From Callorhinchus milii (lineage: Eukaryota), in assembly GCF_018977255.1 (NCBI RefSeq), contig NW_024704742.1, forward strand, positions 35,404,001 through 35,468,000: DNA of 64,000 bases, given 5' to 3'. Made by a program: the position numbers and the translations under genes. Below the pieces are notes generated by a model. It did no database searches. It had not been told where the DNA came from and saw only the letters and a list, made by a program, of their open reading frames with translations. Below, in pieces: positions 6,121 through 64,000 of this stretch; within the stretch, counting starts at the first letter, position 1; each line of letters starts with the position of its first letter.

Positions 6121-6437
6121 ATAATAATAATAATCTTTGCATTTGATATAGCGCTTCTCACGTCGGGAGGACGTCCCAAAGCACTTCACAGAACACACTG
6201 TAAAGTGAATTGACTGTATATTTGTGGGTGAACGCGGCAGCCAATTGCGCACAGCAATGTCCCACAAACAGTCGTAGATTGAAAATGACCAATTTATTAT
6301 TGTTTTTTTTTTGGAGGGATTATTATTAGGCTCTGTGTGGAGTAAGGAAACTTGCCCAAGATTTCGCCCTTCCTGGAATTGAACTCAGGTCTCTCGCTTG
6401 CAAAGCGAGTGCTCTAACCACTGAGCTACAGGACTAC
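6121..6437 (-). mobile_element. tRNA-Ala-derived SINE, full length
   Basis: Head with Pol III A/B boxes, conserved body, L2-type tail ending in (TTA)n; very similar to the copy at 51104. Confidence 0.92.
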
Positions 6438-10827: not shown

Positions 10828-11523
10828 ATAGTTTTTACATATTTTAGTCCTTTCGCACATAAGTTTTGCAATTCACATTTAGTTTATTTACATGGAATAG
10901 TTATGAACTAACGACAGACAGACAGATGTAGAAAGAGAAAGACAGATCGATTGACAGTTCATTCGCTTGTTCTACCAAACCTGCAGTAAATCAAAATAGT
11001 AAATCAAAACGATTTGACAGTTCAGATGCTGGTACAAATTTTAAATGTGAATTTGCATTAACCTGGACAACAACCCTGTCAAATATCTGTTGATGGGGTG
11101 TACAGAATCAGGTCAGCATTTTTATATAATCTTACTAAAGAAGCTCCACTTTTTTGCTTTTGATAATGCCTTGATTCATATTAAAAAATAAACTCACTTT
11201 GCTAATGGACTGCTAAAAGCTGGTAACATTCTTTTGACTAGCTGTTAAGCTGAAAACTGCCACCACTTCCTTCCAAACCCTCCCTTTCAACTCCATATGA
11301 ATGGGCCAATGTAATGGTGGCACTGAGAATTCATTTAGTTTTTATGCCAGGTCTAACAAACTAAAAAATGAAAGCTAATGAAACTGCAGTTTAAACATGT
11401 GTTGTCCAACTCCAGAAATAAATACAGCGACTTAAAAGAGTTGTAAAAAAAATTAACACGAAAAGGTATGTTAATGAAGCTCTTTTATCTGTAAGGTTAA
11501 AGCTTGATAAATGGTAATAACAG

Positions 11524-11608
11524 GCAAGGGAGCCCCCTAGAGATCAGAGTGCACAGCAGGTACAGTACAAGTTCTCCACTAACAGCATTGCAGCTCTTTA
11601 CAAAAGAG
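11524..11608 (+). pseudogene. GFPT (pseudogene): GFPT exon remnant ([27 protein letters not shown] exon)
   Basis: aacag|G CAA GGG AGC CCC CTA GAG ATC AGA GTG CAC AGC AGG TAC [AGTAC duplication, frameshift] AAG TTC TCC ACT ... CTT TAC AAA AGA G = QGSPLEIRVHSRY/KFSTNSIAALYKR; donor reads gcaag. Confidence 0.88.
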
Positions 11609-15200: not shown

Positions 15201-16339
15201 AATTTCAGGTGATAATTATCATTTGACTTTGGCACAATGGTTTAGCCCAAAGTTGTAGGAAGCTTCCAATTGCCATTGTTGCTTTGGATCGTGGAGAATG
15301 TTTGAGATCCGCTTCACAAAATAACAGCCTAACTTAAAATGAGTTTGACCACTATTTCGGTCATCGTTTCCCTCCCCACCACCAGCTTGAATGTCAAGTC
15401 AATATCCTTATGTGCCTTAATCACTGGTAGAGGTTACTGGAAGCATCTGAAGTTACATTTTTTTTAAATAAAGATAGTTTTAGAACCATAAGGATTTTCC
15501 CTCTGCAACTTTTATCTCTTTAGTTCCAAAAGCACAAATTTATCTTGGATTATGGTTTCACTGGTACCGGATGTCTTCCAATAACCTGTCCAAGGAGCTG
15601 TTCTTCAAGTGTGAGACAATCCAGGCTGTGACAATCCAGCCAGGTCCAATAAAATGCTTTCATTCATCATCCACGTAGCCTGACTGATTTTCCTTAGGAT
15701 ACAGTGGTGCATGGAAGGTGTCCATCCAGGCAGATGAGGGCCAGCTATAGTTATTCAAACTTTGCAAGTGGAGTTTCCAAAGATTATAAAAGATAAATAA
15801 CCTTTTCACAAGGTGCCGACAATCCTGACACTTTAGCGGATGGACAAGAACTTACGCAGTCAGTGCCATAGAATTATTAACCCTTCCTCTTCTATTTTTC
15901 TATCATCTTCTTTCCACTTCTTTATGTGATTGTGGATTGAGCTATTTTGTTTTTTTGTGATTTATAGTAATGGGTAGAATAATATAGGAGGAAGAACTTG
16001 TAGGACAATGCATTTGGAGGATTGGAAATAACATGAGAATACATTTAGTAAGAGTATTGACCATGGTGGTACCTGCATCAATGCAATAGAGACAGGAAAG
16101 GTTTTGAAGGAGAGACACATGGGGTGGAAGACCAGAATTAACTGAATGATCATTCTTGACAAGCCTTCAGCTGTCAACGAGAGATGTGAAAAGAGACTCC
16201 CCCTGGGCTGTTCTCAAGCCAAAGACAAAATGGGGATTTGTAGAAAATCATTGAGAAATCTTTGGCACAAGTGAAGAAACTGAGATAGAAATGTGACAAT
16301 TCTATTTGAGATCAGAGGTTATAATGAGAATATTGATAG

Positions 16340-18890: not shown

Positions 18891-19148
18891 TAATAATAAT
18901 AATAATCCTTGCATTTGATATAGCGCCTTATCATGTCTTTGAGACGTCTCAAAACACTTCACAAAATATGCTGTAAAGTGAATTGACTGTATATTTTGTG
19001 GGAGAAACACGGCAGCCAATTGTGCACAGCAGTGTCCTACAAACAGTCGTGGATTGAGTGTTTGCCAAACGTTTTGCCCTGCCAGGAATCAAACCCAGGT
19101 CCTCTTGCTTCCGAAATGAGTGCTCTAACCACTAAACTACAGGACTCC
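18891..19148 (-). mobile_element. tRNA-Ala-derived SINE, internally deleted
   Basis: (TAA)n tail, body, head ending ..ctacaggactcc. Confidence 0.9.
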
Positions 19149-29310: not shown

Positions 29311-30510
29311 ACAACAAGAACAACTTGCACTTATATAGCGCCTTTTATGCAGGGTAGCATCTCAGAGCACTTAACAGTGACTGAGCATGATTCCAAGCTA
29401 AGGGAAGGGGAGAGGTGGCTGTAAGCACGGGCGAAGAGGAAAGTTTTCAGGTGGGACTTGAAAGAGGGGAGAGAGAGGGCAAGGCGGAAGGATTGAGGAA
29501 GAGTATTCCAGAGTTTTGGGGTGTAGTGGCTGAAAGCGTGACCTCTGATGGTGGGGCGGAGGGTGCGAGGAATGAGCAGGAGGCGGGTGCCAGTCGAGCA
29601 GAGGTGCTGGGTGGTGGATTGGGGAGATAGGAGGTCGAAGAGGTAGAGAGATGCCAGGGAGTGAATGGATTTGAACACGAGTGTGAGGATCTTGAAGTCG
29701 CTCTGTTCGATAATGGGGAGCCAGTGGAGCCTGGCCAGAATTGATGAGATGTGGGTATGGAGTTTGGTCCGGGTCAGTATGTGGGAGACAGAGTTTTGAA
29801 TGAGCTGGATCTTGTGAATAGCTGAGCTGGGGAGATCGGCGAGGAGCGCATTGGAGTAATCCACCTGGAAGAGACAAACGCATGCACGAGGGTTTCGACT
29901 GCATTTGGAATAAGATACTGTCAGAGGTGGGCAATGTGGTGTAAGTGGAAGAAGGTGGTCCTGGTCAGGGACCGGATGTGGGGGAGGAAGAACAGCTGAG
30001 AGTGAAGCCATTGATGGGAGCCAAGGAGTATGGCTTCCGTCTTATCCATATTCAACGGCAGGAAGTTTACACTCATCCAGACCTTGATGTCTACCAGACA
30101 AGCTGGTAGCACATTGGCGGATCTGGAGTTGGTACTGGTGGAGGTAAAGTAGATTTTTCTGTGTCATCCGCATACATGTGGAAGTTTACCCCGTGTTTGC
30201 GGATGACATTGCCCAGAGGGAGCATATAGATAAGGAAATGAAGAGGGCCAAGGATGGAGCCCTGGAGTACTCAGTAGGTGACCAGGCAGTGGCGGGAGGA
30301 GAAACCATTTGCTGAGGTGAAAGAGAGGCGGTTGGTTAAGTAAGACTCGAACCATGCGAGTGCGGTCCTTCTAAGATAGATGAGAGAGGAGAGTCGATGG
30401 AGGAGGATGGTGCGGTTGACTGTGTTGAACGCGGCAGAGAGATCCAGGAGGATGAGGAGGCAGGGGGAGCCCTGGTCACAGATATTGAAAATGTCATTTG
30501 TGACCAGCTT
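29311..30510 (-). mobile_element. L2 LINE fragment with reverse transcriptase, frameshifted
   Basis: LLILLDLSAAFNTVN..LAWFESYLTNR; cacatgtatgcggatgacac (HMYADDT); LARLHWLP..FKSHLKTFLF; tail at 29311. Confidence 0.95.
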
Positions 30511-31206: not shown

Positions 31207-31325
31207 CCACATTTTTACTGGAGACTTGACAGAGTTGCCATTTATGGTTGAACTGTCCAGTGATTTACTGGGCTGGAGCACTTCTCTGTTTAAAAATTGT
31301 AACTGCTTCTTCATAATCTAGTCAA
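31207..31325 (+). pseudogene. GFPT (pseudogene): GFPT exon remnant ([40 protein letters not shown] exon)
   Basis: Reads LLE/LTELPFMVELSSDLLGWSTSLFKNCNCFFII*S with a frameshift and TAG at 31319-31321; donor gtaac, acceptor decayed (ttgctg). Confidence 0.92.
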
Positions 31326-33293: not shown

Positions 33294-33602
33294 GGAGTGC
33301 TCCAGCTCAGTGGTTTGAGCACTCGCCTCGCAATCAAGAGACCTGGGTTCAATTCCCGGCAGGGCAAAATCTTGGGCAAGTTTCCTTACTCCACGCTCCT
33401 GATAATAATCCGTCACGAAAAAACAAAGCAATAATAAATTGGTCACTTAAATCCATGACTGTTTGTGGGACACTGCTCTATGCAATTGGCTGCCGTGTGT
33501 GCCCACAAATATACAGCCAATTCAATTTATAGTATATTCTGTGAAGCGCTTTGAGACGTCTCGAAGACATGCAAAATGCTATATCAAATGCAAGGATTAT
33601 TG
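33294..33602 (+). mobile_element. tRNA-Ala-derived SINE, full length
   Basis: ggagtgctccagctcagtgg..gggttcaattcccgg..atcaaatgcaaggattatt. Confidence 0.92.
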
Positions 33603-40288: not shown

Positions 40289-40602
40289 GGAGTCCTGTAG
40301 CTTAGTGGTTAGAGCACTTGCCTCGCAAGCAAGAGACCTGGGTTTGATTCCTGGCAGAGCGAAACCTTTGGCAAGTTTCCTTACTCCACACGCCTGATAA
40401 TAATCCCTCAAAAAAAATAATAATAATAAATTGGTCACTTCAATTCATGACTGTTTGTGGGACACTGCTGTGTGCAATTGGCTGCTGCGTTTCACCCACA
40501 AATAAACAGTCAATTCACTTTACAGTATATCATATGAAGCGCTTTGAGATGTCTAAAGAAGTGATAATGAATTATATCAAATGCAAAGATTATTATTATT
40601 AT
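40289..40602 (+). mobile_element. tRNA-Ala-derived SINE, full length
   Basis: ggagtcctgtagcttagtggttagagcac..(TTA)n. Confidence 0.93.
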
Positions 40603-44927: not shown

Positions 44928-45048
44928 TCTTGATCAATGAGGTTACTATCCTGGATGACTAAATTCAGCAGCTGGCCATTGTCCATCGGTTGTTCCATCA
45001 GTGCTTAGTTGTGTCTACTGTTATGTTCACCGCCTGGAGGGGGCATTA
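44928..45048 (+). pseudogene. GFPT (pseudogene): GFPT exon remnant (DLIKEVLSMDDEIQKLA...YATCLEGAL exon)
   Basis: Reads LINEVTILDD*IQQLAI...YCYVHRLEGAL|gtgagt; TAA at 44960-44962; acceptor reads ac instead of ag. Confidence 0.9.
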
Positions 45049-46862
45049 GTGAGTAACTGATATGAGAGATCACCCAAGTGCACCCTTTTCAATTAGCAAT
45101 AGGACTTCATACCTGGAGATTGAAAGTGGTAGATGGAGCAGACAGTTAATTATAGCTTTAGCTCCAAACTGTGAGTTAATGAATTTTAAAGTGAATCAAT
45201 TAATAGCTAATTGGGTTACATGCATGGAGCTTGAATTGGAAATCTTGAAGGGTAGAGGCTTTATAAAAGACAGAGCTGGCTTTCTTTTATTTGATAAGAG
45301 CAGCGAACCACCTACCAGTTTTATGTTACCGTACCATTGTTGTTAAATAAAATGAAACTGTTGAGCTTATGGAAGCGTTCATTTTACTGTCGAGATAGAA
45401 TTGATTAATGCATTTTGTAGACTGAATTATTGATGCAATTTCTTCTAAAATTGCAGCTATTCTTTTTCTGGTGAATTGTTTTGCAAGTTTGAAAGATTTA
45501 TTAAAATGTTGGGCCTGTAGAAGACAAAATGCTACTTAGTATTAATATGTTGTTGATGGGGGGATGATTAGTCTTTCCTACGGTGCAATAACTACCAACA
45601 ATATTGACACAGTGTTATTTATTGGGGTCAAGGCAGCATTTGATTTTAATTACACACTGGTATGTAGTTGAGACAATGGGGATGAGATATTTCCTTTGTC
45701 AGTTAGATATTCTACCTTGTGGATGTGCATAAATAGTAGCAGAAAATCGTGAGTTAACAATAAAATAGGATGTTAAAATCTCCTGATTATCTGCACTGAC
45801 AAAAGAAATGTTACAAAGAAAAATGCCCAAGTGAGTAAAACTGGCAATTAAGCTTATTATAAATAGTCTCCAATTTATTATAAATTGGAGCATTTTTTCC
45901 TGAGTGCTTCTTTGCAGTAAGTGAATAATTTGGACCATTATGAAACACTACTTTGCTGAAGTTTTTGAGGTGTATTGTAGTCGTGTGCAATGTGGCTGCT
46001 CCATTATTGGCTTCCATCCAACCCTGCTGTTGCTTAATGCAAATAATGTAACAATAATAATAATAATCCTTGCTCTTGATAAAGTACCTTTCAAGTCAGG
46101 AGGAAGTCTCAAAACGCTTTACCTGATTTACTTTGCTTTCCTTTATTTGGTAAAAGCAATGAACCACCTACCGTATTATGTTACCATATTATTGTTATTA
46201 TATAAAACAAAACTGTTGGATGAATGAATGAGTGAATTTGTGAAGTTATTTTTTTCCAAAATAGCAGCTATTGTCTGTCTGACCGGGTATTTTGTGGGGC
46301 AATGCGGCAGCTAATTTGTGCATAGCAAAGTCCCACAAACAGCCATTAAGTGAATAACCAATATTGTGAGAAATATATTTCTCATTGTGAGAAAGGACTT
46401 GTATAAATGTTCCTCACGTTTAACCAACCTGCCAAGGTGTGCATCCTTGTGCTATTCAGTGGTAGCAGGCCCCACTACCACTCCTCCTTTGGATGGATAG
46501 CTGAGCTTTGCCCTCCAGTAATATTACCCTGTGCCAAGTGCTTCTAGCCTATTTGCAACAGTACCTTAACCTTTTTGTTATTCAAACCGTTTAATTTTAT
46601 TTCAAATTCTGAAATAGAATTGGAATCCTGTTAAAATTATATTTTACATTATCTCGATGTCTGAATGGGGGAAAAAGAACTGATTTTAATGTGATGCAAA
46701 ATCAATGCATTTGTGTGTTTAGTATTGATATTGATACACCTCTATCTGTAAATAATGTGAGTCTGACTTGGTTTAAGTGACATAAGGTTATTGTCCAATT
46801 TGCTAGTTGCTGTAATAACATGTGTCAATTTCAATTGCACATCTTCTGGTTTCTTAATGCAG

Positions 46863-47019
46863 AAAATCAGGATCACCTCCATGCACTCTGAGGGGATCCT
46901 TGCTGGTGAAGTGAAGCATGGTCCTTTAGGTCTGATTGATAAGCTGATGCCAGTCATTATGTTTGTCATGAGGGACCCATACTGCAGCAAATGTACTTCA
47001 ACAAGTCACAGCTTGACAG
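46863..47019 (+). pseudogene. GFPT (pseudogene): GFPT exon remnant ([25 protein letters not shown]...QQVTARQ exon, second SIS domain)
   Basis: ttcttaatgcag|[44 protein letters not shown] / frameshifting deletion / LQQVTA*Q|gtttgt; TGA at 47014-47016. Confidence 0.97.
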
Positions 47020-47274
47020 GTTTGTGAAGTGTTACACTGACTGTCAAACTAACCAGTGGCAGGGGTTAGATGTAAGATACGTAAATGCAGTACATGTCTA
47101 TGCTTTGAACGTGTCGCAGCATTAAACTCTATATAATTAACTCACCAGCTACTCTTTCCTGGCTACATTGCACGCACTTGGTTGATATGGATTACAAATT
47201 GCTGTGACATCTAATAGTGCATTCAAACAGGTTGTGATCACGGGTAACGCACGTTTCAATCTGCATTCATCACT

Positions 47275-47487
47275 CTGACAACGTATGACACTCTCCCTCA
47301 ATCTCTCCGCCTTGCCTCCTCTCTCCCCTTTTTCCAGTCCCGCCTGAAAACCTTCCTATTCAACCGTGCTTACGGCCACCTCCCCGTGCCCAACCCCGCA
47401 CCCAATTCGGAGTCAGGCTCCGCCACTGTTAAGCGCTCTGAGACGTTACCCTGCGTGGAGGGCGCTATATAAGTGCAAGTTGTTGTT
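47275..47487 (+). mobile_element. L2 LINE 3' end
   Basis: Tail nearly identical to that at 2478-2837 (caggctccgccactgttaagcgctctgagacg..gggcgctatat). Confidence 0.88.
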
Positions 47488-49239
47488 AGAGTGTATCAAA
47501 CTGATGCAAACAGTATGCAGTGAACACATGGTAGAGACCCACTATTCCAACTAGTCTCAGCTTGTTCAGACCGTTTTGTCTTAAAATTTAACACAACACA
47601 GAATTTCGGAAAATTCTTAAATCCAGCCCAAATCCGCAAGCCAAGTTTCCACAGTTCTTTAAAATTTTTGACTTTCAAATTAAGACTGATGTTTTCCTCA
47701 ATTCTATGGGATGTCACATTTCAAGACCAAGACAAGGTGAGATTTCAGGAGCCCAGAGAGTTTGAAGTAAAGTTAACACTTTGCTTGTAAATACTACAGT
47801 AAAAGAGCTTTTTGCTTAAAGTCACACCATTGATAAATATGGATGGATCGACTGAACTAATGTTGGAAGCTAGCAGCGCATTTTTTTTCATTGTAATTCA
47901 TGAATGTAGAAAGGTTAGAATCTGGAAAACTGCACTGTTGAATTTAATTCAAACTGAGTGAGAAAATAAATTCCTGAGGAACTAGTCATTTACAGAATAA
48001 ATAAAATTCTATGCTTGCCAGTTCTAAATGATGTGCAGCAAAGCAAGTAAAAGGGTCGGCTGAGCATTCAAAATGTTAACGGTTTCCTACTTTTTAATCT
48101 ATTTCCTAAATGAAAACTTACCTCGATATTATGTTTCCAAATATGATGCTATCTTTGACACTACAGTTTTTGCCAGGACATTTTCCTGAATCTTGTTCAC
48201 ACAATATTTTTCACGGAATTAATCTAGACAGGACAAATGTTTAATTTGTACTTATTGTATACAAAACAATCTTACAACACAATTCATGCTATTTGAAACC
48301 TACCCCTTTAACTCAGTATTTTATATGGTTATAATCTTTACAATCTAACATAATAATGTAGTACAATGGAAATGGCATTTGCTCTTGCATTCTGCTCTTG
48401 TGGGGAAATAGCATTTCCATTGTTTTTTTTTAGTAGATTTCAACTTCTGGATTCATTGTAATAATATTTCAATCTTAAGTAAGAAAGTCAAAATGTCTAC
48501 TGAGCCAGATAACATGTGCCGTGGCCTTTATTCTAGCTGGGCATCTTCAAGAATCTACGTTAACTGTGATATGTTTTACTAGACTAGGATCCATAGACTA
48601 CAGAGTTTTTAAAAAAGTGATCATTAGGATGTGGCAATGTTACTGGGAGCAGGGATTCTTTTCACTTAGTTCCTGTAACCCTGCAAACTCAGGACTCTTG
48701 GGTAGACTGATCCTAGCTGGACAAACAGCAGGAAGGCTGTCAGAAAGTGCTCTCAACAGCAAACTATGCAGTTTAATTGATTAAACTCCAGCAGTATGCG
48801 CACTCTGGGGTCCCCAAGCCTTGGCTTTTGCCAATGTGCACCAAATACTCTTGGAAACTGGTTAAGCCAGAATACATCCCTGCAGAGAGAAAGTACACAC
48901 GTCATTCCAGAAAAAGGGAAATTTACATATGTGAAATTCTCGGTCTGGTTTGGATACTCCTAACTACGATGATGGATTTTCACATGTATCAAATACCCGA
49001 TCTCCCATAAACAAATGTCTCGGCTGAATAATAAATGACTTCTTGCTCTGTAAAGTAATACACTGTAAATGGGTGATGTAAAGACTGTGGACCAAATATG
49101 AATCCATAATAGAGATTTTAAACATGGTTACTAAAAAAAGGCTGAAATTTGCAGTCATTATTGATGGTTGTAAGTAATTGCTGAACAAAATCCATCCTTT
49201 TCAGATCTTAATGAATTCTTGCATTCTTTCTTCCTTTAG

Positions 49240-49391
49240 GGTCACCCTGTCATTATACGTGAAAGGACGTTGGGGAAATGATGAAATATGTATACAGAGC
49301 AATTGGACTGCCGAACACAACAGATCTTCTGCTAGGAAATCATAGTGTCATTCCCTTACAGTTCTTCACATCCCACCTCAGAGGATATGAT
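49240..49391 (+). pseudogene. GFPT (pseudogene): GFPT exon remnant (GRPIILC...SVIPLQLLSFHLAVLRGYD exon)
   Basis: ttcttcctttag|GHPVIIRE/DVGEMMKYVYRAIGLPNTTDLLLGNHSVIPLQFFTSHL---RGYD|gtgagt; one frameshift and a 3-codon deletion. Confidence 0.94.
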
Positions 49392-49639
49392 GTGAGTTAT
49401 GAGAAGATCATAGAGGTTAACTCTAAACGTCTTTGAACAACTTTCACCAAATTCTAAACCTCACGGGAATAAGTTAGTAAGATATTCATGAAATGATAGA
49501 ATTTGTTGTCAGTTTGTCAGGCGTGTTCTAAGCCTGGGAAAAATGAAAACACCAGTCATGTTAAGAAGTGCAGAATGTACATGTGGTAGAAATCTGAGGT
49601 CCACAGTTTCTCATGGTTTTAGTGTCACTCCAAGACGTT

Positions 49640-50010
49640 AGGGTGAAGGGCGCATATAAATGCAAGTTGTTGTGGTTTTAACCTTAAACCATAACCTTAA
49701 AACCACCGTACAGAATTTTAAATGGCAGTCTTAATTCAGTCTTAATTTGGAACTACTTTTGCTTCTGCTGGGGTTTGAAAGCAGAGAGCAAGAGATCAAG
49801 GCAGAGGGATTGAAGGAATGTCTTCCAGACAGAAGGGTCAAAGTGTGTCAAAAACTTGTCCACCGACAGAGGGGCACAGGATGAGGGGACAAAGTGCAGG
49901 CCAGAGTTAGTAGAACACAGGAAGTAAGTGGGGGAGTATGACTGCAGGAGGTCTCAAAAGTGGTGATGGGGAGTCAGTGGAGCCTGGGGAGGATGAGGTG
50001 ATGAGCTCAC
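49640..50010 (-). mobile_element. Decayed L2 LINE fragment(s)
   Basis: L2-type tail near 49645-49672 (+ orientation) and purine-rich reverse L2 ORF2 sequence at 49770-50010. Confidence 0.5.
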
Positions 50011-50627
50011 AAAGCTTGGTCTTTTCTAAAAGGTTTCTTCTGCTTACTCAGGTGATTCCAGTCACAATGTTATTCTAGTCGCAGGTTAGACATTTGGCAA
50101 TCTGGCTATACAGGCCAGAGATTTAGTTCACTCAACACTGTCCTGTATGACCTTTCCTCAGACCTCAGACATCGAGGATAGACAACAGCCAGAAACCAAA
50201 GCAACAGACCCACCTTTGAAAGGACAGCTAATGTGGAGATTGTTTCTGTATTACTGCCAGGTCTGTCAATTCACCTTGCAGTATAAACAGCAGGTTTGAC
50301 AAGAACAGGATTCTATTTCTAAATGAAGCAGCACTACTGCAAGATGCTCATAATGTAAACTTGTCATTACCTGGTATCTGATTTTGTGCAGTGACTGTAG
50401 CTGTTCCAAGCATCCAAACTGTCATCTGCACCGGACGTATTTTGTCACAGCTGATCTGATGATTAAAAGTAGAGCTGCTACCAGTGGGTTTACAGCACTG
50501 CTGGTAACATGGGACATATGGTATAAAAAGCACACAAGAACACCTCATAGTGAACACCCCTGGAGCTGATTTCCTTGTCTTTCAACACAGATGAATCACC
50601 AGGTTGGAAATAATATGGTCTAATTTA

Positions 50628-50990
50628 TAATAATAATCTGTGCATTTAATATAGTGCCTTACCAGATTATTGAAATGTCTCAAAGTGCTTCACAGAATTT
50701 TACTGTAAAGTGACATTCCACACAACCATCAAGTGAATGACCAATTTTATCAGGAGAATTGTTGGCTAGTGTCCCAGGAGAAATTCCCTTCTCGTTTCAA
50801 GTAATGCCACGGGATCTTTAACATCCACCTGAATAGGCAGATAGATCCTCGGTGTAATGTCTCCTCCACACCTCTGACAATGCAGAGCTTCTCCAGCCCT
50901 GCATTGGAGCGTCAGTCTAGATTATAAGGTCAAAGTCCCAACTAGGGGCCTTGAACCCACAACCTTTGATTCAAGAGATGAGAAACCTAT
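50628..50990 (-). mobile_element. Deu-domain SINE, near full length
   Basis: taatgccacgggatctttaacatccacctgaataggcaga..cttgaacccacaacc. Confidence 0.75.
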
Positions 50991-51103
50991 CAATTATTCA
51001 TTGAACATGAACTTACACGTTGTTTAACTCTTCCATTTCTGGTGGGCAACTGAGGGAGACAACCCCACTATTGTCAGCTTTCTGGAACATGTTCATTTCA
51101 AAT

Positions 51104-51418
51104 TAATAATAATAATAATCCTTGCATTTGATATAGCGCTTTTCACGTCGGGAGGACGTCCCAAAGCGCTTCACAGAACACACTGTAAAGTGAATTGACT
51201 GTATATTTGTGGGTGAACGCGGCAGCCAATTGCGCACAGCAATGTCCCACAAACAGTCGTGGATTGAAAATGACCAATTTATTATTGTTTTTGTTTTGGA
51301 GGGATTATTATTAGGCGTGTGGAGTAAGGAAACTTGCCCAAGATTTCGTCCTGCCTGGAATTGAACTCAGGTCTCTCACTTGCAAAGCAAGTGCTCTAAC
51401 CACTGAGCTACAGGACTC
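51104..51418 (-). mobile_element. tRNA-Ala-derived SINE, full length, young-looking
   Basis: (TAA)n tail to ..ctgagctacaggactc; CpGs retained. Confidence 0.94.
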
Positions 51419-51794
51419 TACACTTACTGCACACTCTGATGGTGTTTCACTGCTAATCGCGGAATATAAATGGAATCTCAGGCAATGTTTATCCCTGCTC
51501 CAAGTTATTTCTTTTTGACCGCGACTTTGGTCACCTTCCTCCCCCTCCCTCTGGCTCGGCCTCGGGATCCGTCACTGTGAAACGGTCTAAGATGCTGTCG
51601 GGCGTGGAGGGCGCCATATACATCCAAGTTGTTGTTGTTGTTTGAAGTTTTGCAAGAAATCAACTTGCATTTTTCTTGTTTTCATGAGAATAATTTGGCT
51701 GAAACTTTGAATTTGAAATCAAATATTTACTCCTACTAATAATCTACCAACCAGGACTACTGCCAATGTTTTTACTTAAGTATCACTTATATAT

Positions 51795-52113
51795 GGAGTC
51801 CTGTAGCTCAGTGGTTAGAGCACTCGCCTCGCAAGTGAGAGACCTGGGTTCGATTTCCGGCAGGGCAAAACCTTGGGCAAGTTTCGTTACTCCACACGCC
51901 TGATAATAAACCCTCAAGAAAAAAAAGAAAAAGAAAAAAATAATAATTTGTTCACTCAATCTATGACTGTTTGTGGGACACTGCTGTGTGCAATTGGCTT
52001 CCACGTTTCGCCCACAAATATAGAGTGAATTCACTTTACAGTACATTCTGTGAAGCGCTTTGAGACGCCTAGAAGACATGAAAAGCGCTATATCAAATGC
52101 AAGGATTATCATT
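51795..52113 (+). mobile_element. tRNA-Ala-derived SINE, full length
   Basis: GGAGTCCTGTAGCTCAGTGGTTAGAGCACTCGCCTCGCAAGTGAGAGACCTGGGTTCGA: A box, anticodon-arm-like CTCGC-CT-CGC-AA-GTGAG, B box. Confidence 0.94.
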
Positions 52114-52289
52114 ATATATAGTCGCAATTAGTACATAGTTATCACTGAAAGTACCTTAACAACCTTATCCAGGACTGATGCCAGATGGGAAATAGTCCCT
52201 TTTGATTTTGACATTTATTAATATATTACATTTATATTAAATTGATATGCTCTGATACAAAACAAAACACATTGTTTGGATAATATAAT

Positions 52290-52690
52290 AATAATAATTC
52301 TAATGCTTGCATCAGGAGAACATCTCAAAGTGTTTCACAGAATTTACTGACAGCGTATATTTTGCAGGCAATGAATGTGGCAGCCAATTTGCACGCAACA
52401 ATATCCCACAAAAAGCCATCAAATGAGTGACCAGTTATATTTGAAACACCAAAGAAAACTTGCTCCTCTTTTCAAATAATGCCTAGTAATCTTTAACATC
52501 AACCTGAACAGGCAGATATGTTTTTTAACATTTCATCTGAAAGGTGGCACATCCAACATTGCAGCACAACCATAGCACTGCATTGAATTATCAGCCTGGA
52601 CTATGTGAGTTAAACATCCCGACATAGAGTTTGAACCTAGAGCCTTGTGAGTCAGAGTGAGAGTACTGCTGACTGAGCCAGGCTGACACC
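52290..52690 (-). mobile_element. Deu-domain SINE, near full length
   Basis: ctttaacatcaacctgaacaggcaga..tcatctgaaaggtggcac..actgagccaggctgacacc. Confidence 0.72.
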
Positions 52691-54608
52691 TGCACAAGCA
52701 CAACATCTGGTGGTATTTCAGATCCTTTATGTAAACTATTCAGCACAACCCAATATAATTAACAAATCAGCATTTTAGAATTTAGCTGGATGATCATATT
52801 ATTTCAATATGTTGTCTAGCTCTAGCATTACTCCAAACATGAAATTGTAGCTTTTGTTGCAGAGGTACGTGGAATGATCTGCATACTGACAATAAGATTA
52901 ATGCTTTTGTGTACTAGTAACAGACCATATTAATGTGTCTTGTGCTGTCCATCCTGCATCATGTACTCTTGTGTAATGGATATACCATGTCAGTCCTCAT
53001 TGCATTGAAAGCCCATTACAGCAATTCTCCACATATATTTGTTCTCAAGGCTGTAAAATGTATTCTTTTTTCTAAGAAACCTTTAATCTCCCTAGTGTAT
53101 TCGTCCCACATTTTTATCAATAGAGGAATTAAGGGGCTTGTTTATGTAAATCCGGGGAAAATGAATTGCAAATCAATCACTGGTGTGATGCACAACTTTT
53201 CTAAAGCTCAGTAAGTGCTTCTGATTTTATCTGTATTTTGCTTATTGTTGCAGTCTTGTTGCTTGACAAATAAAGTGTGCAAGTGCACCACTAGCAAAAC
53301 ATTTAAATATTTTCTCATCAAATTTGTTTTACATGCATCTTTTGAGGACACACACTTTATACTAATTGATCTCACAAAATGTACAATTAATTCACTTTAC
53401 AGTATATTCTGTGAAGAGCTTTGAGATGTCTCGACAATGAGCTAAGGCGCTATATAAAAATGCAAAGATTATTATATTATTATCATTCATTTCATGACTG
53501 TTTGTGGGACATCACTGTTTGCACATTCTGTTCACCATGTTCACTTACAAATGCACAGTTACCACACTTTACAGTAAATCTTGTGAATCATTGTATGATA
53601 TCTTGATATCAAGATTATGATTTATGATATCTTAGAGAAAGGACGTCATGTTTGACAGAAGCAAGTGGCCAACGGATGAAAGTGGTAAGTGGCATGCTTT
53701 ACTCGTTCCATACAGCATTTAGTTTCCTGACCCAAATTGGGAGAAAATAAACAGATGCCCCACCTTGCTGCTCCATTCAGAGAGGATCAAGAGATGATAA
53801 TCCCCAGAAACTGCAGATTTGAGTTCTAACAAAACAGCTTGGGCCCATCAGCAAATTGTGTTGGCATAAGTTTATGATTAATCTGGCACATGCTTAGCAG
53901 CGAGAGTGATCATCCTTCACCAAACACTAAAGAAACCTGTGACATGCTTTTGTACAAACGTTTGTAACACTTACATTTCAGGTCAAATAACCCAACTTCT
54001 CAATATTGTCTCAATGGAAAAATACATATAAATATACTTTACGTTTATATTTTTATGGATGGATGTTTTTAAAGAAAATTACTTTCTATAGGACTAGGAT
54101 TAGTGCGATATAATGACTGGATGTTTCTTTTTACTCCATAATATTTTGGGCTATAACGCTGTGATGTGTATGGCTATCTCCCATTAGATGTCCTGTAAAT
54201 GGATAAACACTTTTAACAGAACATGGATTTGGATTTAGTAATCCCAAAACACAGATGTTGGAATGGGAGGACCTGTGACTGGTGCATATCCACAAGTCTC
54301 AATATCTCAAAGTGCTTCACAGATGGAGTGGGAGCCCGAGCAAGTTAGAAAAGAGAAGGGTAGGAGTAGTAAGATACAGTCAAACAGGCAGGATTTTAGG
54401 CAGGTTTTGAAAGCAAAGAGGTGTGAGGCAAGACGCAATAAAACAAAGTATTTTTAATGGATTCAATATTTTATTTTTCTTTTGTGTTGCAATATGAAGA
54501 GTTCTGAGATGCTATCATTTGTGAAGGGTGCTATATTTAAGCGAGTTGTTATTATTGCTGTTGTTATTGAAGCCTTGAGAAGGTTTGAAAAGGCTTAATT
54601 TACCAAAC

Positions 54609-55520
54609 ATCCGATTTACCAAACATCTCCATTCTGTCCGCAAGGACAACCCTGAGCTTCCGGTTTCATGCCACTTCAACTCTCCCTCGCACTCTGACCT
54701 CTCCATCCATGGTCTCCTACGCTGTTCCCATGCACCATAGCGCAAGCTCGAGGAACAGCACCGCATTTATCTGCTAGGGGCCTTACAGGCCTCTGGCCTC
54801 AATATTGATTTCAATAATTTCAGACCATAACAGCTCATTTTCCCCCTCCCCCTCTTCTGTGACCATTAATAATCTTTGCATTTGCTTTAGTGCTTTTCAT
54901 GTCTTCTAGACGTCTCAAAGCGCTTCACAGAATAGACTAATGACTATATTTGTGGGCGAAATGCGGCAGCCAATTGCACACAGCAGTGTCCCACAAACAG
55001 TCATGGTTTGAAGTGACCAATTTGTTATTGTTTTATTTTCTTGAGGGATTATTACCAGGCGTGTGGAGTAAGGAAAGGTTTCACTCTGCTGGGAATCAAA
55101 CCCAGGTCTCTCGCTTGCAAAGCGAGTAATCTAACCACTGAGCTACAGGACTCCTCACGAGGATTTATAGATATTTTTTATTACCACATCTGGGTCCCAG
55201 ACACACATTTTCTCTCTCTGGTCTGCCTGTTTTTTGCAATTTCCACCCCCCACCCCCCTTTGTTTTTCATCATTAAATGCCTATTTAACCCATCATCCCC
55301 TGTCCTCCACCCCATTTTCTCCTTTGTCTTCCTTGCTCTGCCTCCCCACTCTATGTTAGTCCTTAAAAGCCTCTCTCTCCCAACATGCCGGTTCTTTCGA
55401 AGGGTCGTGGACCCGAAACATTGACTCACTTTCCTTTCTCCATAGATGCTCCATGACCTGCTGAGTGTTCCCAGCGACTTCTGTTTTTGTTTCAGATTTC
55501 CAGCATCTGCAGGATTTTGT
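54609..55520 (+). mobile_element. Penelope-like retroelement 3' fragment (GIY-YIG endonuclease C-terminal region plus 3' repeat), split by a SINE
   Basis: 54609-54830 = IRFTKHLHSVRKDNPELPVSCHFNSPSHSDLSIHGLLRCSHAP*RKLEEQHRIYLLGALQASGLNIDFNNFRP*; 3' segment gaagggtc..gacccgaaac..gatgct..gacctgctgagt..ccagcatctgcag. Confidence 0.82.
54866..55153 (-). mobile_element. tRNA-Ala-derived SINE nested in the Penelope-like element
   Basis: Tail-to-head match to the family, ending ..gagctacaggactcc. Confidence 0.9.
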
Positions 55521-58199
55521 GTTTTGTATTTTGAGGTGGTTAATGTTGTAGCAGAAAGCAGAAATCTGATTTGCATTGTTTCTATTAGTAACAATCAGCC
55601 TGTTAATACTATTGGCATGGGAAGCAACATAATACAGGGGCAAACAAAGCACACAGAGATGGGCATGCTGATAGACATCGTACAAGGGCTACAAAATGAG
55701 ATGAGTGGTCTTTAACAGACCCTATAGCACGAAGTGACCAAGCTTGGGATTTACGGCGCATTGTATTCTAATGTGCAGGGCTTCTCAGAACTCTTCAGTC
55801 AATACGTCACATATGAATGCAGAAATGTTATAGATATAAGATGATCATAGAATCATAGAATTATACAGCACAGAAGGAGGCCATTCTGCCCATTGTTTCT
55901 GTGCCAGCTCCTTGAAAAGATCAAAACTTTTCCTCCAAGTTAATGGATGTTTGTAATCTGACTGCTGTTCTTGTTTCACAGATACAGACTACCTTGTCAT
56001 CAGTCCTTGGTGAGCAAAAGAAAACTATGCTGGCATACACCAAATTGTATATCTGGCACAAAAAATTGTTTTCTCACAGCAAAATGTGTCGTTTCACTTT
56101 AGTTTTTTCCAAGCAAAATATACTTGTAGCTAGAGAAAATGTGGGAAATATTTTAATATCACTTACAACTTCTCAGGACATCTTATCAAATAATATTTTA
56201 ATATCTCTCTTCCAACAATGTGCCGTGTCTTCTGTTTCTGAGATAGGATATTGGAACTGAATTTACATAATTTTAGAAAATTATTCTTTTTACATGAATT
56301 CAGAAAAATACAGAAAATCTGAAAAAAGTAGGTTATGTCACAAAGCCGTCCTGAATTAATCTAGTTCAATGCATTTTAGTGGAACATGCATTGATACAAT
56401 GAAGCTGCTGATATAAAATACACTAGTCAAATTTCTCAATGGATAAGCAGAAGCTCAGTTCTGAGCAAACTCAGAGATTTATTCCAATGTGGGAAGGGAT
56501 ATGCATGATAAAAATGTGTATGGCAACAGCAGACAGTGAAGCTGTAACACTAGGTAGTACTACCAATCATTCAATGGAGGAAGAGTATTACAGAGAAACT
56601 AGAGGGCTATCTTTTATTTTGGGCTGTTCTATTCATTTTCTTAGGACCAAAACTTTGTTCTGGTATTAGGTAAAAATGTAGAACTTGAAAAATTGAACCT
56701 CCCCATCACCAGATATTTCAGTTGCTGGTTTAAGAGAAGTTCAGGAAAACTCTTTATATTGGACTCACATATTAAACAGTTCCAGCACTTACCTGTTTGC
56801 CCCGATGCCCTGTTTCCATTGATGACAACTTACATGGCTAGTGGCAACCAAATTAACATATATTAATAATGTGGGTTAGCATTGAGAGGGAATTTACATC
56901 CCATTTTTCACCAAGTTTGTGCAACTGACATGTTACCTGAAAAATGTTCTCCTTGTTTATACCTCCCTAATTAATACAAACCACTTCCTCTAAAACAGGA
57001 CCTTCATTATATCACAATTGTTTAATGTGTTTGGAGTGCAATTACTGTTTTTAATACCTTGAGGAGTGCAATAGCATTCTTTCACACAGTAAAGAAGTAA
57101 TAATATTAAAGTTGCTAGTTTATTTCAAAAATATTTTTATCAAAATATTTTCTTGAAAATGTGCTATTATTCTATAAGTTCGTCCTATTGCACTTCAATA
57201 ATTATCACATTGAAAGCTTATAGAACATGATTTTCGTCATTAAAGAATATTACGCTCTCCTTTCTGTATTCCATGGGTTAAATTGTACATTTGAAACTTT
57301 GCAAACAAAATATGTTTCAAAGGAATCCAGTTATTTTTAAAACTTCAAAATTTCATGAAGACTGCAGATTTTTTCTCTCTCTCTTGGTTTGTCTTCAAAC
57401 TTGGCAGCAAACCTTCCTTGTTCCATGAGATGTTTATGTGAGAACATTTGAGAAATATATTTCCATCATCCACGGCGTATTTCCAATTAGGTTTTTGGCA
57501 CTTAAACAAAATATGCTTTGTGCACATTTTTGCGGCTGGGCAAAAGCTAAATAGAAGTACTGTGCTTTTGATCTCTTTAACTTTTACATTCAATTGTTAA
57601 TTTGTTTTTATTATGAAGCAGAGTTAAAGAATGTTGAATTGTTAGCCTGTTAACAAGGGACCCCCAGATGCACAAAATCAACCTTAACTGAACAACTCTA
57701 GGAAGGCAAGCGAAAAAAAAGACTGACGTAGCTCGTGGCTCTATTACTACACGATTGATCTATCGTGGCTTTTCCGCCGTGAGCTAAGTTTTAAAAAAAA
57801 GGCTGGAGATATTGTCAGATTGGACAAATGTCCTGCGAGTGACAAGGCAGAATTTTTACATATTTATAGGTGATAACAAAGTACAGCTCTGTGGGAATTT
57901 TGCCATCAAATAGTTGTCCGGGAAGGAGGAACTTGCTTTGTAGACTGTCCAACTGGCTGGGGAAAAAATAATGAACGTTTATCATTTTATCATACAAGAT
58001 GCATTACTTTACATTTAGTGTTAAGAAAGTAGAGTTTTTAAATCTACTATAAAAGGATTCATGCTATTGGCTTGTGGCTCTGCAAAGCTCTGTATTGAAA
58101 CTTTTCAATTTCTAAATTGGGATGTTGATAATGAATGTTCATCAAGTGTCCTCCCAGAGTGGAAGTCGCTATAGAAATGCGAGTTGTTGTTGTTAATAC

Positions 58200-61100
58200 A
58201 TTATTAAAGAAGAATTTCAATTTGTTTTGCACGAGAAGCTTTGTAACCCTTCCACTGGGTACTTTCAATCTGGGCAGCCAAATGGTGGGAACTCAAGTAA
58301 AACAGACAGTGTCCTGGACTACTTCAATAAAAAAATGTACCTGTGTGTTATTCAGAGATGTAATATACTCACTTTGAACCATTGGGTATTAATGGGCCAA
58401 ATGAAGAAAATGTCCACTATTTTCAACAGACTGAAATAGCATTATTGATTCTGATGTTAAATTTCGACCTGCGCTTAAAAACTACTGGAAATATACTTGT
58501 TGAACAATTTCTTTCATCACATGTTCTTCAGATTATAGTTCAGATTGTACTTCACATTTATAGTTAAAATGGAACACTGAAGACCACCATGAGATTAAGC
58601 CTTGTATGTTTATAAAGTTTGCCGCTTTTGTACTGTGCGAGTGAATGGGTTCAATATTATTTTGTGGCTTAGGGCCTGAAATCATTTAGCATTTTGCAGT
58701 GGTGTCATGGTGCAATAGCAACACATCATTGGTGGGCAGCATTCTCTTCTGTTATCCTACCCATAACATGGAATTCAATGAAGGGAATACAATTATGGTC
58801 TGCCATCTGTACCTTTGAATAGCTGAGAACTCCCTGCATTGTGTCATTTTGCTTCTTGCTATTTGTCCTCCAGATAGGAAATACACATTTCCGCGGCATT
58901 CAGAACCATCTCCTCACCAAAAATCGGCCGTGATGTGACACTGATGTGACACACAGATATTGATTTAAATTAAATTACGTTACCATTCAGATTTGTGAAT
59001 TTGCTAATAATGTTTTATGTTATATTGCAGTGATTTTAACACTAATGCAAAATGTAAATATAATTTCTACTGAGTAAATTCAATGTGGGATTTTATTATT
59101 TTTATTAAAATGTCCCACTTATTTTTGTTTAAAAACTAGAGTTCATGTTTTGCAAAAATGTTCATTGCTGAAATAGATCAGTAAATTCATATTCTTATTA
59201 AAGTATAGGAATGGTTATATTTACTATCTTTTAAATTTATATTTCTACATTTGTTTAAATATATTTTAACATTAAATCTAAATAATATTAATATTTATTA
59301 TTATTAAATATATTTTTGGTTTGTGTTAAGCAATAGTTCTATTTAAATATTAAAGGTCTGATTTAGTGCTTTTGGCACTGGCACTAATTTGCAGATTGCA
59401 CAAGAGAGAAAATGTATTTTGTGTTATTTGTGAAATACATACAAATAAAAGCAAGTTATATTCCAAGGGGAATAAGCACAAATAATTGCTTTTATAACCT
59501 TCCCTCAGAATGAGACGGCAATTTTGTTTAGCTGAGATATCTCTATTTATATATTTGGAAACACTGAATACTCAAAACAGTAAGATTATCCACTAACCAC
59601 AGGTCTGTTGTCTCTTTATATATCATCTAACAAAAATATTATAATTAGTTGAGGAAGGCAAGGGAAAGGTTTTGTTTCAATTTTTGAGTTGGATCAGTTT
59701 TCTGATTTGTTTATTTATTTTGCACAAGTTTAATACAACAAAGCATTATATTTTCTGCGATGAAACACGATAAATTTGCACTGTAATTGCTGAGTAAAGC
59801 ATCACCGTCACTGGAATACTGTGTAAATATTGTACCAATGTAATCCAGGCTCTGTTTCAATGTTGTTTGTTTAAATGTATTAAAAGCATTTTACTCCTAT
59901 TCTTTTAACTTGAAGAACAAAAATGTTCATTGCTCAAATATAGAGTTGTAAATTCATATTCTTATTGAAGTTAATAATAGAAATGTTAATAAATGTACAA
60001 GCTTTATTCATCAGTTTGTTTGAAATATGTAGGTAATTCCAACCAATTCAATTGAAGGAAAAATATATTTGTATATATTGGTGCAGGTTGTTTCATAAAA
60101 TGCAATTCTACTGAATCATTCAATTTCTGTCCTTCAAGAAAAAATGTGGCAGTTTATTTATTAACATTATACTGAGATAAATCTTCGAATTTAGATTGAC
60201 AGTCCGTGAATGTGGAAAAGTGAAATGAATTACTTGGATTTAGCATTATTTCTTAGCAGATAAACTGTCCACTTGGTAACTGCAAATGGAAGTTTTTTTC
60301 TTATAATGCACATTTTAAGGGATAAAAAGAAAAAGGTATGTAAATGAACTGCATTTGTTTGTATTCAGGACAAATACACTCATCTTTCAGCACATTCTGC
60401 TTCATACTGAAATGATGGCTAAACGTATATGCACTCTTCAAACAAGGTAAACTGCACAAATACTGGCTTTAAATACAATTATTACTGGTTATAAAATTAG
60501 GATATTTGGATTGCCTTCAATGTGCTTTACTACAAGGAATATAAAAATAACTAAAATTACACAGCATTTGGGCCTAATCTTATGTGTTTTTAATGTTATT
60601 TTTTAAAGCTAAAAGAATAATCTGTGTGCAAATCTACTTCTTGTTACAATGCCACTTTTCCCAGCTATATTGCACTCAACTGCACGACCGTTTTAAATAA
60701 AATTTCTATTGGTGTACTTACAGGTTCACTTTGGCAATCTTTTTGCAAATGCACAATTCAATGTTTACACATACTGAAATAATCTCATTCATTTCTACTT
60801 TTGCACAAATAGACCTTTTGTAACTTCAGGAAATTGCAACTGGACTGTCTTCGGCAAACAATTCTGATATCTCTCCATATATAAAAAGTTATACAACAAA
60901 TTTATTCCCCCAATATCAAGATGATGTATCTATCTATGATAGGTCAAATTCAGACAATTCTGTATTGTTTGAAATAATGTAATACAAAACTATGTATGTG
61001 ATTTATGTACAAGGAAAATGTAATAAATATAGTTCACTTAAGTTTAATAACCATCATATTGATGCGATTTTGTGCCATTTAATGCCATGTGGTTATCAAT

Positions 61101-63481
61101 GTAAATATGTAGGAATAAGATGAGCTAGCATTTTTTTAAAATTAATTTGAATACATATTGTTTTATAATGGAAGTGTATAACAAAACAAAGTAATTAGAC
61201 GGAGATCTCCAACCAATTTTCATGGGAGTCCAAATTTGTGCCATGCACTACAGTGTAATCCAGCAAAACACAAAACAAATATGATTCATTTAAACTGGTC
61301 TGCTTGTATGAATTAAGAAAATTACCAATTATCTTTATAAAACAAACTGTAAAAACAGTATTATATCTAATGATAAGAGCATAGATCTGTATGAAAGGAA
61401 ACTAATTCAGCTTGTACTAAATTAGTATAACACTCCATTGTGCACAGAGCTTAGGTTACATGGAGACATCCCTAACTATAGGGGAGGGGGACCTTTGGAA
61501 ACGTGCATGAAAAACAAGAGAGATAAAGAGATAGAAACCCTGTCTGTATAAATTCTGATATTCATTGTTTTTTTAAAAAACATGTTCAGAAAATCCAGGC
61601 AAATTTAAAAATTCTAATAACATTTATTTTGTGACAATCTGATAGGTAGCACTTTACAATTTTGCCATTACTGTAAATAATAATGAGCAAAAGATTAAGC
61701 AAGTAGTTATAAACAGAGCTGCTGTGGCAACACCGCAATTTTTTTCATGTAAACCAAAGGAAATATTCATGTCCCATATGATTTTGATGAACAGCTCAAA
61801 AGGATAATTAGACCAGGACTTTTCACTATCGTTCTTCCCATCTCGCGCACTTGCTTGCCCACCAAATGTGAAGTGTTCGCCTGTTCCCTCAAATGTGATG
61901 GTTGTTGAACTTATTTTTAGTGTCATTTGATAAGCTTCTCTGCTCGCAGAGAGACATCCCACTGACCCAGCCACTGGTCATTGTCTATACCAGTTCACAT
62001 CAAAGTAGGCGCGCTTTGTCAGGTTTCGACTCGAATATCCATTTTGCATCTCAAGTACAGTATCGAAAGTGACTGCATCATTCGAGCTTTTTTTCAGCTG
62101 CTGCTTTTTTCTCCCCCACAGTGTTTCCGCTCACACTGACATCATTTGGGATTGTCGTGTTGACAAGACGGTTGGAAAATATTGCATTAAATATATTATT
62201 CCTCAATATTTGGGAAGGGGCTACAAAAGGAATAAAAAACTTGATATTTTGGCTAGAAATAGGGTACCTATTTCTCTATTGTATATAACCAGTGTAAAGT
62301 ACCTTTTAAAATCCAAGCAAAGCAGATACGGTAATAGGTCATTCAATGTCAAAAGGCATAAAAAAGATGAGCAAAATCTTCACAGGCTGCTGCTTGCTGT
62401 TGCCTTTAATTATATTAATTAAACTTTGAAATTCTCATGCAAAGAGAGTTGCTGGCTTGTGACACTGCCGAGCCCTTGGAGATTTGAAGAATGGGAGAAT
62501 ACCAGCATACACAACCTTGGGTTGTAACAGGACTGCTCCGTTCTATTTTATTTATTTCTTTGTTTAATAAAAGTAAGCAGATCAGTGAGTGTGCCCTAAT
62601 ATGATGACGTTTTATGCGCTACTGAACACAAGACCAGAGGAATGGCAAAACACCAGCCACTATCCCAGGGCCTCCGAACATCACCGTCTCAATTTCTGCA
62701 GAAGATCTTTGGTTATAGGCTGTGCTGCTATAAGATAACGCTCTATTAATTCTCTTTCCCTGGAACATAATGAAAGAAAGGTGTCTTCAAAAACTAAAGG
62801 GCAAAGTCTAGCTGATTCCTATACCTTGGGGCATCCTGTCTACATTTTGTCATGCGTGTGCACTTTTCAGTGGAAAATGACAAGATTTACAGTCAGAAGG
62901 CTCCCGTAAGGCATTGTAAAGTGGTGAAGTTGGAAAGATTTTGTGATGTGACATCGCCAAAAGGCAATGAACTTTTGCACTGAGTAGGCCTGGTGGGATT
63001 GCTGCTCCGCCTGTGGCTAATAGGCTCTATTTTGACAATACACTCTGTCTGTAAAATTTGGTTATCCAAAACAGCACACTGTGGGCAAACCACAATCGCA
63101 CTGGAAAGAAAGTTCTAAGTGACCATAAAATGGTAAGAATTGATGGATTTTCTTGTGTGCTTGTTTTGGGTTTCTGCCGTTGCTGAGGTGTCATTACACT
63201 GGGTGTGTTAATTGCGGTGAAAAGCAGATAGAGAGATCATCCGTGAAGTTATCTCGGTATACTTCTCGTAGCGGAGTACTGAGGAAGGAATGTTCGTCAT
63301 TCCAGCTGCAGTTTTGTGACAAGAGCAAATCCAAAGCACAGCAGAGATGATTTATTTCATATATTAGAAGAACCTTTTGCGTAACGTGGTAAATATCCAT
63401 TAAGAGTGCGGATCCCTGCACAGTTCCTCAGCAGGTAATACAGATAATGATGTGACTCAAGCTTCACCGACTTCACTCTCC
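58200..63481 (-). other. Putative long 3' UTR of the ANTXR-family gene; distal end uncertain
   Basis: Follows the stop codon. I see no SINE/LINE copies over about 5 kb, unlike the rest of the window. AT-rich, with - strand AATAAA candidates (tttatt on +) near 61623, 60003 and 59092. Confidence 0.5.
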
Positions 63482-63511
63482 CTAAACTCGGTTGAAGTTT
63501 ATGCACCGGCC
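63482..63511 (-). CDS. ANTXR: Last coding exon of an anthrax toxin receptor family gene (short-tailed, ANTXR2/ANTXRL-like; paralog unresolved)
   Basis: On - strand: gtttctgtctttgcag|GGC CGG TGC ATA AAC TTC AAC CGA GTT TAG = GRCINFNRV*, matching the ANTXR terminal-exon motif GRCINF(T/S)RV. Upstream exons lie beyond the window. Confidence 0.85.
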   Translation of the reverse strand, partial: GRCINFNRV

Positions 63512-64000
63512 CTGCAAAGACAGAAACAATAACAGTGAGTAATATGATGTATAACAATACATATTATATAAATAACTAAGAGCTAAAGTGGAACGTAATC
63601 ATGTTATTAATATATAAATAATTAGAATAGTTAGTATCCTTAAATAAAATACACTAGTGATGCTCCAATTGTAACCAATAACCTGGGTGCAACAGCAATC
63701 ATTTCCCCAGTTTTACACAACCCCAGAATGAAACCAAATAACTAATTTTATATTATGGTGAACTTTATTTCAGATCCTGTTACATGTAACTTGAGTCTTT
63801 AGAACTGATTCTGCTCTTCATTTCATACGTTCCTAATTGTTAGTTATCATTCGATTATATACCTTCAGGCTACGTGACTAAATGCCAAAAAAACTATGAA
63901 AATAATAGATAAGCAACTTATAATAATGAAAATAACTTTCAGAAGACCAGGTGGTGCAGAAGGTTATAACATTATATTTTCACCTGAAAGATTATGGGCT

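Follow-up and report, generated by a model that had tools for sequence, protein, structure and literature searches.

In the genome of the elephant shark, Callorhinchus milii, a stretch of 64,000 nucleotides (C1:35404001-35468000, hereafter the window) carries on its plus strand the remains of a GFPT gene, which converge on the last coding exon of ANTXR2 on the minus strand. The remnant is a non-processed GFPT pseudogene spanning at least 38 kb, and it occupies, within the ANTXR2 block, the slot and orientation predicted by the other two ANTXR–GFPT pairs of the genome. We favour, with a probability of about 0.65, the reading that it is an in-situ relic, at the 3' end of ANTXR2, of an ohnolog produced by the vertebrate genome duplications.

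A broken GFPT gene in addition to three apparently intact ones

The composition of the window is vertebrate-like (GC 0.38, CpG observed/expected 0.35). It was searched by tblastn with five GFPT proteins as queries and with a GFPT profile, built from 105 proteins and run over all 4441 six-frame open reading frames (ORFs). Both approaches returned remnants on the plus strand that are collinear, separated by introns and distributed from about 11.5 kb to 49.4 kb, and the top profile match on the minus strand reached only 3.2 bits. The 86-residue open frame at 46767-47027 (+) matched the Pfam SIS family with E 1e-4 and 22.5 bits, under the 25-bit cut-off; a search of the protein collection with this frame gave 14 GFPT proteins among the 60 candidates listed, the best being C. 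milii P0001, the GFPT2 of this species. The pieces are as follows:

11519-11608 (+): weak GFPT pseudo-exon, residues about 199-229, RQGSPLEIRVHSRY...; profile 5.2 bits, collinear; found by tblastn with three of the five queries (E 0.2-0.4, aligned at 11522-11575)
15741-15794 (+): uncertain candidate pseudo-exon, profile positions 307-324, 4.8 bits, collinear
31223-31315 (+): pseudo-exon with open frame, first SIS domain region, residues about 390-425; tblastn E ~1e-5 with all five queries; profile 27.4 bits
41607-41705 (+): heavily diverged pseudo-exon, residues about 476-510; profile 11.4 bits, E 0.016; tblastn with four of five queries, E 0.08-0.55
44930-45013 (+): pseudo-exon with a TAA at 44960-44962 and a frameshift nearby, residues ~527-553; aligned by tblastn with P0001 only (E 0.32), no profile match
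46863-47019 (+): best-preserved pseudo-exon, second SIS domain, open, AG before and GT after; tblastn E 8e-16 (46872-47018, residues ~562-606); profile 68.4 bits, E 8.6e-20, from 46842
49240-49436 (+): last pseudo-exon, AG before, premature TGA at 49260-49262, 3-codon deletion, terminal stop at the ancestral position; tblastn E 4e-8 (49239-49406, residues ~614-672); profile 25.5 bits, from 49266

The last two pseudo-exons join in frame via a split codon. In addition to the premature stops and the frameshift, the remnant has suffered deletions: the three codons missing from the last exon belong to a conserved stretch, and small deletions are found in 46863-47019. Thus, no uninterrupted frame with two SIS domains is left, the pieces of the SIS region being broken and several exons missing. 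The features of a non-processed pseudogene are all present, namely, six to seven collinear pieces on one strand over 38 kb with retained splice signals, and the AG/GT dinucleotides together with the split codon identify the remnant as a DNA-level copy and not a retrocopy.

To place the remnant in its family, other GFPT loci were located with P0001 in the whole genome (991.5 Mb in 1762 contigs). Each consists of 16-17 exon matches with no stops in the stitched reading; the locus models were stitched from tblastn pieces, and their exon edges are approximate. Three loci, apparently intact as judged from these models, were found:

C13:746971-760172 (+): GFPT2, 99% identical to P0001
C28:3258300-3281932 (+): GFPT1, 92% to shark GFPT1
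C7:6910911-6934584 (-): third GFPT, 17 exon matches, no stops, ~81% to GFPT1 and GFPT2 proteins

In our trees, which are quick searches with support given solely as Shimodaira–Hasegawa-like approximate likelihood ratio test (SH-aLRT) values, the C28 locus falls within GFPT1, and the C13 locus in a GFPT2 clade together with proteins of sharks and rays that carry the NCBI name 'GFPT2-like'. The C7 locus pairs with coelacanth P0014 (NCBI name GFPT1; SH-aLRT 95), and the pair is sister to GFPT1 (97). The original prediction had proposed a lost third GFPT ohnolog; with three apparently intact loci already in the genome, the count has to be revised, and the remnant would be the fourth copy. The two GFPT genes of mammals, which control entry into the hexosamine pathway, are the only ones described for mammals in the accessible part of a 2026 review (PMC13599463). 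In the literature searched we met with no account of a third GFPT clade in vertebrates, nor any paper on extra GFPT paralogues or on this ANTXR/GFPT paralogy, subscription journals and genome-browser annotation (which may already flag the pseudogene) lying outside that search.

These data also dispose of some other explanations. The remnant might be the true GFPT1 or GFPT2 of this species in a broken state, which would amount to a notable gene loss and is a possibility that the original prediction had itself raised, but both genes are present without stops on C28 and C13. A processed pseudogene or a chance similarity is ruled out by the exon order over 38 kb, the splice sites and the E values of 8e-16 and 8.6e-20. 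As a group, we regard these explanations as highly implausible.

The ANTXR2 tail and the four-block pattern

The partner of the remnant lies about 14 kb away, as measured from the stop of the remnant (49436) to that of its partner (63482):

63482-63511 (-): last coding exon of ANTXR2 (antxr2a), GRCINFNRV followed by TAG, 3' untranslated region toward lower coordinates

This exon consists of nine codons and the stop behind a good acceptor, the upstream letters being ...TTTCTGTCTTTGCAG, and the minus strand around the boundary reads ...CTTTGCAG followed by GRCINFNRV and the stop. None of the 63 minus-strand ORFs in 58-64 kb matched the Pfam ANTXR families. The exon is too short for a Pfam match, and its identity was therefore settled through P0132, 'ANTXR cell adhesion molecule 2a [Callorhinchus milii]', the C-terminal sequence of which (...MRPQKGDEGRCINFNRV) ends in the identical nine residues. 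Throughout the genome the Pfam family Ant_C marks three loci, on C1, C7 and C28. The C1 exon (35522357-35523142, minus strand) retrieved P0132 at 100% identity, and among the 120 matches listed for it no row was named ANTXR1 or ANTXRL; moreover, P0132 is placed in the ANTXR2 clade with an SH-aLRT of 98. P0132 maps to C1:35578556-35522360 (-), so that 55-111 kb separate the window from the remaining ANTXR2 exons and the last intron measures ~55 kb; the terminal splice across this intron is predicted from the protein-to-genome mapping. A further isoform, P0131, ends in an alternative terminal exon inside the same intron (C1:35486349-35486405, minus strand).

The pairing of a plus-strand GFPT remnant with a minus-strand ANTXR last exon, which had been proposed from the letters of the window, is thus confirmed in both partners, and the interval proposed for it, 46863 to 63511, proved exact at both ends, starting at the first base of pseudo-exon 46863-47019. 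The exon had also been said to lack the proline-rich tail of ANTXR1. Indeed, it ends after nine codons, whereas the last exon of the C7 ANTXR, at C7:6890045 (+), begins GRCINFTRVKDNKDQAPPCSPAEPERHPP... and encodes a long proline-containing tail. A long-tail last exon of the C28 ANTXR was not found in the 80 kb examined.

The neighbourhoods of the four GFPT loci are composed as follows:

C28 block: NFU1-type 3244243-3247433 (+), GFPT1 (+), ANTXR tail exons 3299526-3300103 (-)
C7 block: JNK 6493681-6503275, ANTXR (+, last exon 6890045), GFPT (-), second NFU1-type 6946525-6949824 (-), PAQR 6969730-6972108
C13 block: GFPT2 (+), then JNK 769205-776241 (+)
C1 block: BMP2K_C 35206365-35207147, PAQR 35215175-35216550, GFPT remnant, ANTXR2, JNK 36994155-37025083

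Every one of the three ANTXR loci is convergent with a GFPT locus at a distance of 14-21 kb. Since the GFPT partners of the other two are intact, a GFPT at the ANTXR tail is the ancestral arrangement, and synteny argues strongly for a copy that has stood at the tail of ANTXR2 all along. The BMP2K_C match on C1 is the only one in the genome, and together with PAQR it lies ~200 kb upstream of the remnant. These flanking genes, along with the ANTXR2a annotation and the tree position of the ANTXR itself, assign the locus to the ANTXR2 block, one of three that the original prediction had considered; the locus is the elephant shark counterpart of the mammalian BMP2K-PAQR3-ANTXR2 block. In the available text of PMC12846694, BMP2K, PAQR3, ANTXR2 and FGF5 are likewise common to one segment of pig chromosome 8.

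The sharing of gene families extends across all four neighbourhoods, with GFPT on C1, C7, C28 and C13, ANTXR and JNK each on three of them, and NFU and PAQR each on two; JNK lies 9 kb after GFPT2 on C13, 0.37 Mb away on C7 and 1.5 Mb away on C1. The remnant therefore sits in a paralogous block that shares several gene families, as is characteristic of ohnologs. Between GFPT2 and JNK on C13, a search for an ANTXR relic gave a single weak match (E 0.05), which lies inside the GFPT2 gene and was taken as chance. In a tree of 57 ANTXR rows, the type found on C7 pairs with that of C28 at an SH-aLRT of 99, and ANTXR2 joins them next (97); the GFPT trees likewise group GFPT1 of C28 with the GFPT of C7 (97-98). 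The agreement of the two families indicates that C28 and C7 are sister blocks, in which case C1 and C13 would form the other pair. From this pairing a remnant on the GFPT2 side is predicted, as found. The lack of NFU on both C1 and C13 fits one loss in their common ancestor. Conversely, each of the two NFU1-type loci, C7:6946525-6949824 (-) and C28:3244243-3247433 (+), has Nfu_N and NifU matches and adjoins a GFPT, and the genome seems to retain two NFU1 paralogues.

The human ANTXR1/GFPT1 pair, which we take to be convergent, provides the closest known arrangement. The gene order at human 2p13.3, as given in the accessible portion of PMC10090176, is ANTXR1-GFPT1-NFU1-AAK1-ANXA4; it is repeated on C28 as NFU1-GFPT1-ANTXR and on C7 as ANTXR-GFPT-NFU1-like-PAQR, whereas C1 has ANTXR2 and a dead GFPT, no detectable NFU, and a flank with PAQR and BMP2K. 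We propose that an ancestral vertebrate block carried ANTXR and GFPT tail to tail, with JNK, NFU, PAQR and AAK1/BMP2K-type genes nearby, and that two rounds of genome duplication would have turned it into four blocks. GFPT would have been kept intact in three of them, as GFPT1 on C28, the third GFPT on C7 and GFPT2 on C13, leaving only a wreck in the fourth, next to ANTXR2 on C1. Constraint on this fourth copy would have been lost long ago; stops and indels would have accumulated, together with transposon insertions by which it grew to at least 38 kb, and presumably it has no gene function now. The adjacent ANTXR2 is intact. The fourth copy would in this way resemble other non-processed relics of whole-genome-duplication partners, in which a decayed duplicate occupies the syntenic slot and the partners survive.

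Tree placement, age and rival origins

The remnant was placed in a 59-row IQ-TREE tree under the posterior mean site frequency (PMSF) model, comprising 56 proteins hand-picked for taxon spread from 130 GFPT proteins, two locus models and the remnant itself, and in two further builds, one of 29 rows with LG+G4 and one from pieces found with the GFPT1 query only. Several observations weigh against an in-situ ohnolog. In all three builds, the maximum likelihood (ML) position of the remnant is within chondrichthyan GFPT2, where it is either sister to elephant shark GFPT2 or part of a polytomy with it; this protein also gives the top identity (53% over 225 columns in the 59-row set, 64% over 123 in the GFPT1-query build). 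All three covered chondrichthyan-specific GFPT2 residues are present in the remnant, and neither of two GFPT2-stem states is. The remnant has a very long branch, of 1.4-6.8 changes per column, and no more than 123-232 of its codons can be read. Furthermore, neither the profile nor tblastn detected on C1, from -10 kb to +11.5 kb of the window, any N-terminal GFPT exon (positions 1-199, the class-II glutaminase domain with its N-terminal Cys), and no NFU relic was found on C1 or C13 even at E up to 10. The ANTXR2-tail locus was examined in one species only, and a relic of duplication age needs a slow neutral rate, for which we use an assumed value. The sequence, then, mildly favours a later origin from GFPT2.

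The block pairing predicts that the remnant should fall on the GFPT2 side, but not that it should nest within the chondrichthyan clade. Reference bias was considered as a cause of the GFPT2 placement and rejected, as the pieces found with GFPT1 give the same result. Two of the three shared chondrichthyan residues recur in coelacanth paralogues, which makes those two homoplastic, and at two of three stem sites of GFPT1 plus the third clade the remnant has the non-derived state. Approximately unbiased (AU) tests were run on the 29-row set under four constraints, with the following costs in log-likelihood (lnL):

remnant outside crown GFPT2: delta lnL 5.95, p 0.33
remnant outside chondrichthyan GFPT2: delta lnL 0.02, p 0.49
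remnant with GFPT1 and the third clade: delta lnL 7.0, p 0.31
remnant with the third clade: delta lnL 9.8, p 0.25

None of the four alternative placements is rejected (p 0.25-0.49). Since one of them puts the remnant outside crown GFPT2, the sequence is compatible with more than one age. The original prediction, that the pair marks a sister segment from the genome duplications with a trace of a GFPT copy, is therefore borne out as far as the block and the convergent slot are concerned, and less so by the tree: nesting in the GFPT2 clade, which had been named as evidence to the contrary, is formally what ML returns, although the position outside crown GFPT2 stands at p 0.33.

In one alternative reading, GFPT2 would have been duplicated later at the DNA level, in cartilaginous fishes or in chimaeras alone, and the duplicate would have happened to land by ANTXR2 and then decayed. 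The neighbourhood of elephant shark GFPT2 in the tree, the three common residues and the 5.95 lnL units lost by a shift outside crown GFPT2 all speak for such a duplicate, and a younger copy would more easily be still recognisable. GFPT2 on C13 is indeed the nearest sequence and the ML neighbour of the remnant, but it is intact, compact (13 kb) and adjacent to JNK, with no ANTXR, whereas the remnant, on a different contig, is broken and extends over at least 38 kb. A late duplicate would have needed to reach a different chromosome and to insert there, in convergent orientation, at the sole ANTXR tail without a GFPT, a target of ~0.05-0.2 Mb in 991 Mb. Nor is third-position identity to GFPT2 raised: the remnant agrees with GFPT2 at 0.46 of these positions and with the other two paralogues at 0.41-0.42, and the value for GFPT2 against these two intact paralogues is 0.43-0.44. 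An identity at the level of old paralogues excludes a recent copy, and a recent duplication is accordingly ruled out. With the homoplasy of two of the shared residues and the AU result for the older position, we consider a late duplicate unlikely.

GFPT2-like residues in some exons could also have been acquired by an in-situ ohnolog if, in early cartilaginous fishes and while the gene was alive, gene conversion from GFPT2 replaced parts of it. In favour of this, the signal of GFPT2 is patchy: exon 44930-45013 is 65% identical to GFPT2 vs 35-38% to the other two paralogues, and the three best exons together are 60% identical to it vs 55-58%. However, one locus is on C1 and the other on C13, the tracts are very short and decayed, and no third-position nucleotide excess is seen over all pieces, which makes gene conversion an improbable contributor.

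For the ohnolog at the ANTXR2 tail, both the duplication-era age and the time of death are inferred. By our own arithmetic on the three best exons, unconstrained decay has added ~0.15-0.2 substitutions per site at first and second codon positions, a figure that is a lower bound. With an assumed rate of 0.3-1 x 10^-9 substitutions per site per year, we estimate a decay time of the order of 10^8 years. It is conceivable, and we suggest it tentatively, that this fourth GFPT ohnolog died several hundred million years ago, before chimaeras separated from sharks and rays, and that only the slow change of this genome has kept it readable. If so, the elephant shark preserves wrecks of post-duplication losses that could be read and dated genome-wide instead of being inferred from absence. 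In more general terms, a relic as old as the blocks would show how long a dead gene stays readable in a slowly evolving vertebrate. After the genome duplications the GFPT family would have had four places, of which three are filled in the elephant shark, one of these also in the coelacanth, and the fourth would be visible as the wreck beside ANTXR2. ANTXR, GFPT, NFU, JNK and PAQR would thereby offer a clean four-block example for reconstructing the genome duplications.

Insertions in the window and ANTXR relatives

Reverse-transcriptase fragments at 8149-8460 (-) and 30280-30507 (-) share 37-39% identity with the retroelement portion of P0309, a fused protein in the database, and are read from this similarity as decayed insertions of the long interspersed nuclear element (LINE) type inside the pseudogene. 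ARAGORN reported eight tRNA-like elements, on both strands, in the introns of the pseudogene and in the intergenic stretch, calling six of them tRNA-Ala; they are probably the heads of a tRNA-Ala-derived short interspersed nuclear element (SINE):

3590-3661, 6364-6435, 19074-19146, 33298-33367, 40291-40362, 51346-51417, 51797-51868, 55081-55152 (both strands): tRNA-like elements

For the part of the window around the ANTXR2 exon, 60500-64000, no RNA run was listed as a source of its words; about 9% of the words sampled from this part are contained in runs X11-X14 of a second organism, which may be a related species in which the 3' region of ANTXR2 is conserved. In the ANTXR tree, vertebrate ANTXRs form four clades. 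Members of both the C7- and the C28-type clades are named ANTXR1 or ANTXR1-like, with no mammal among the named rows. The C7-type clade consists only of non-mammals (birds, turtle, teleosts, bichir and elephant shark), and the 11 rows of the ANTXRL clade come exclusively from placental mammals; mammalian ANTXRL may be a fast-evolving orthologue of the C7-type ANTXR or a separate ohnolog.

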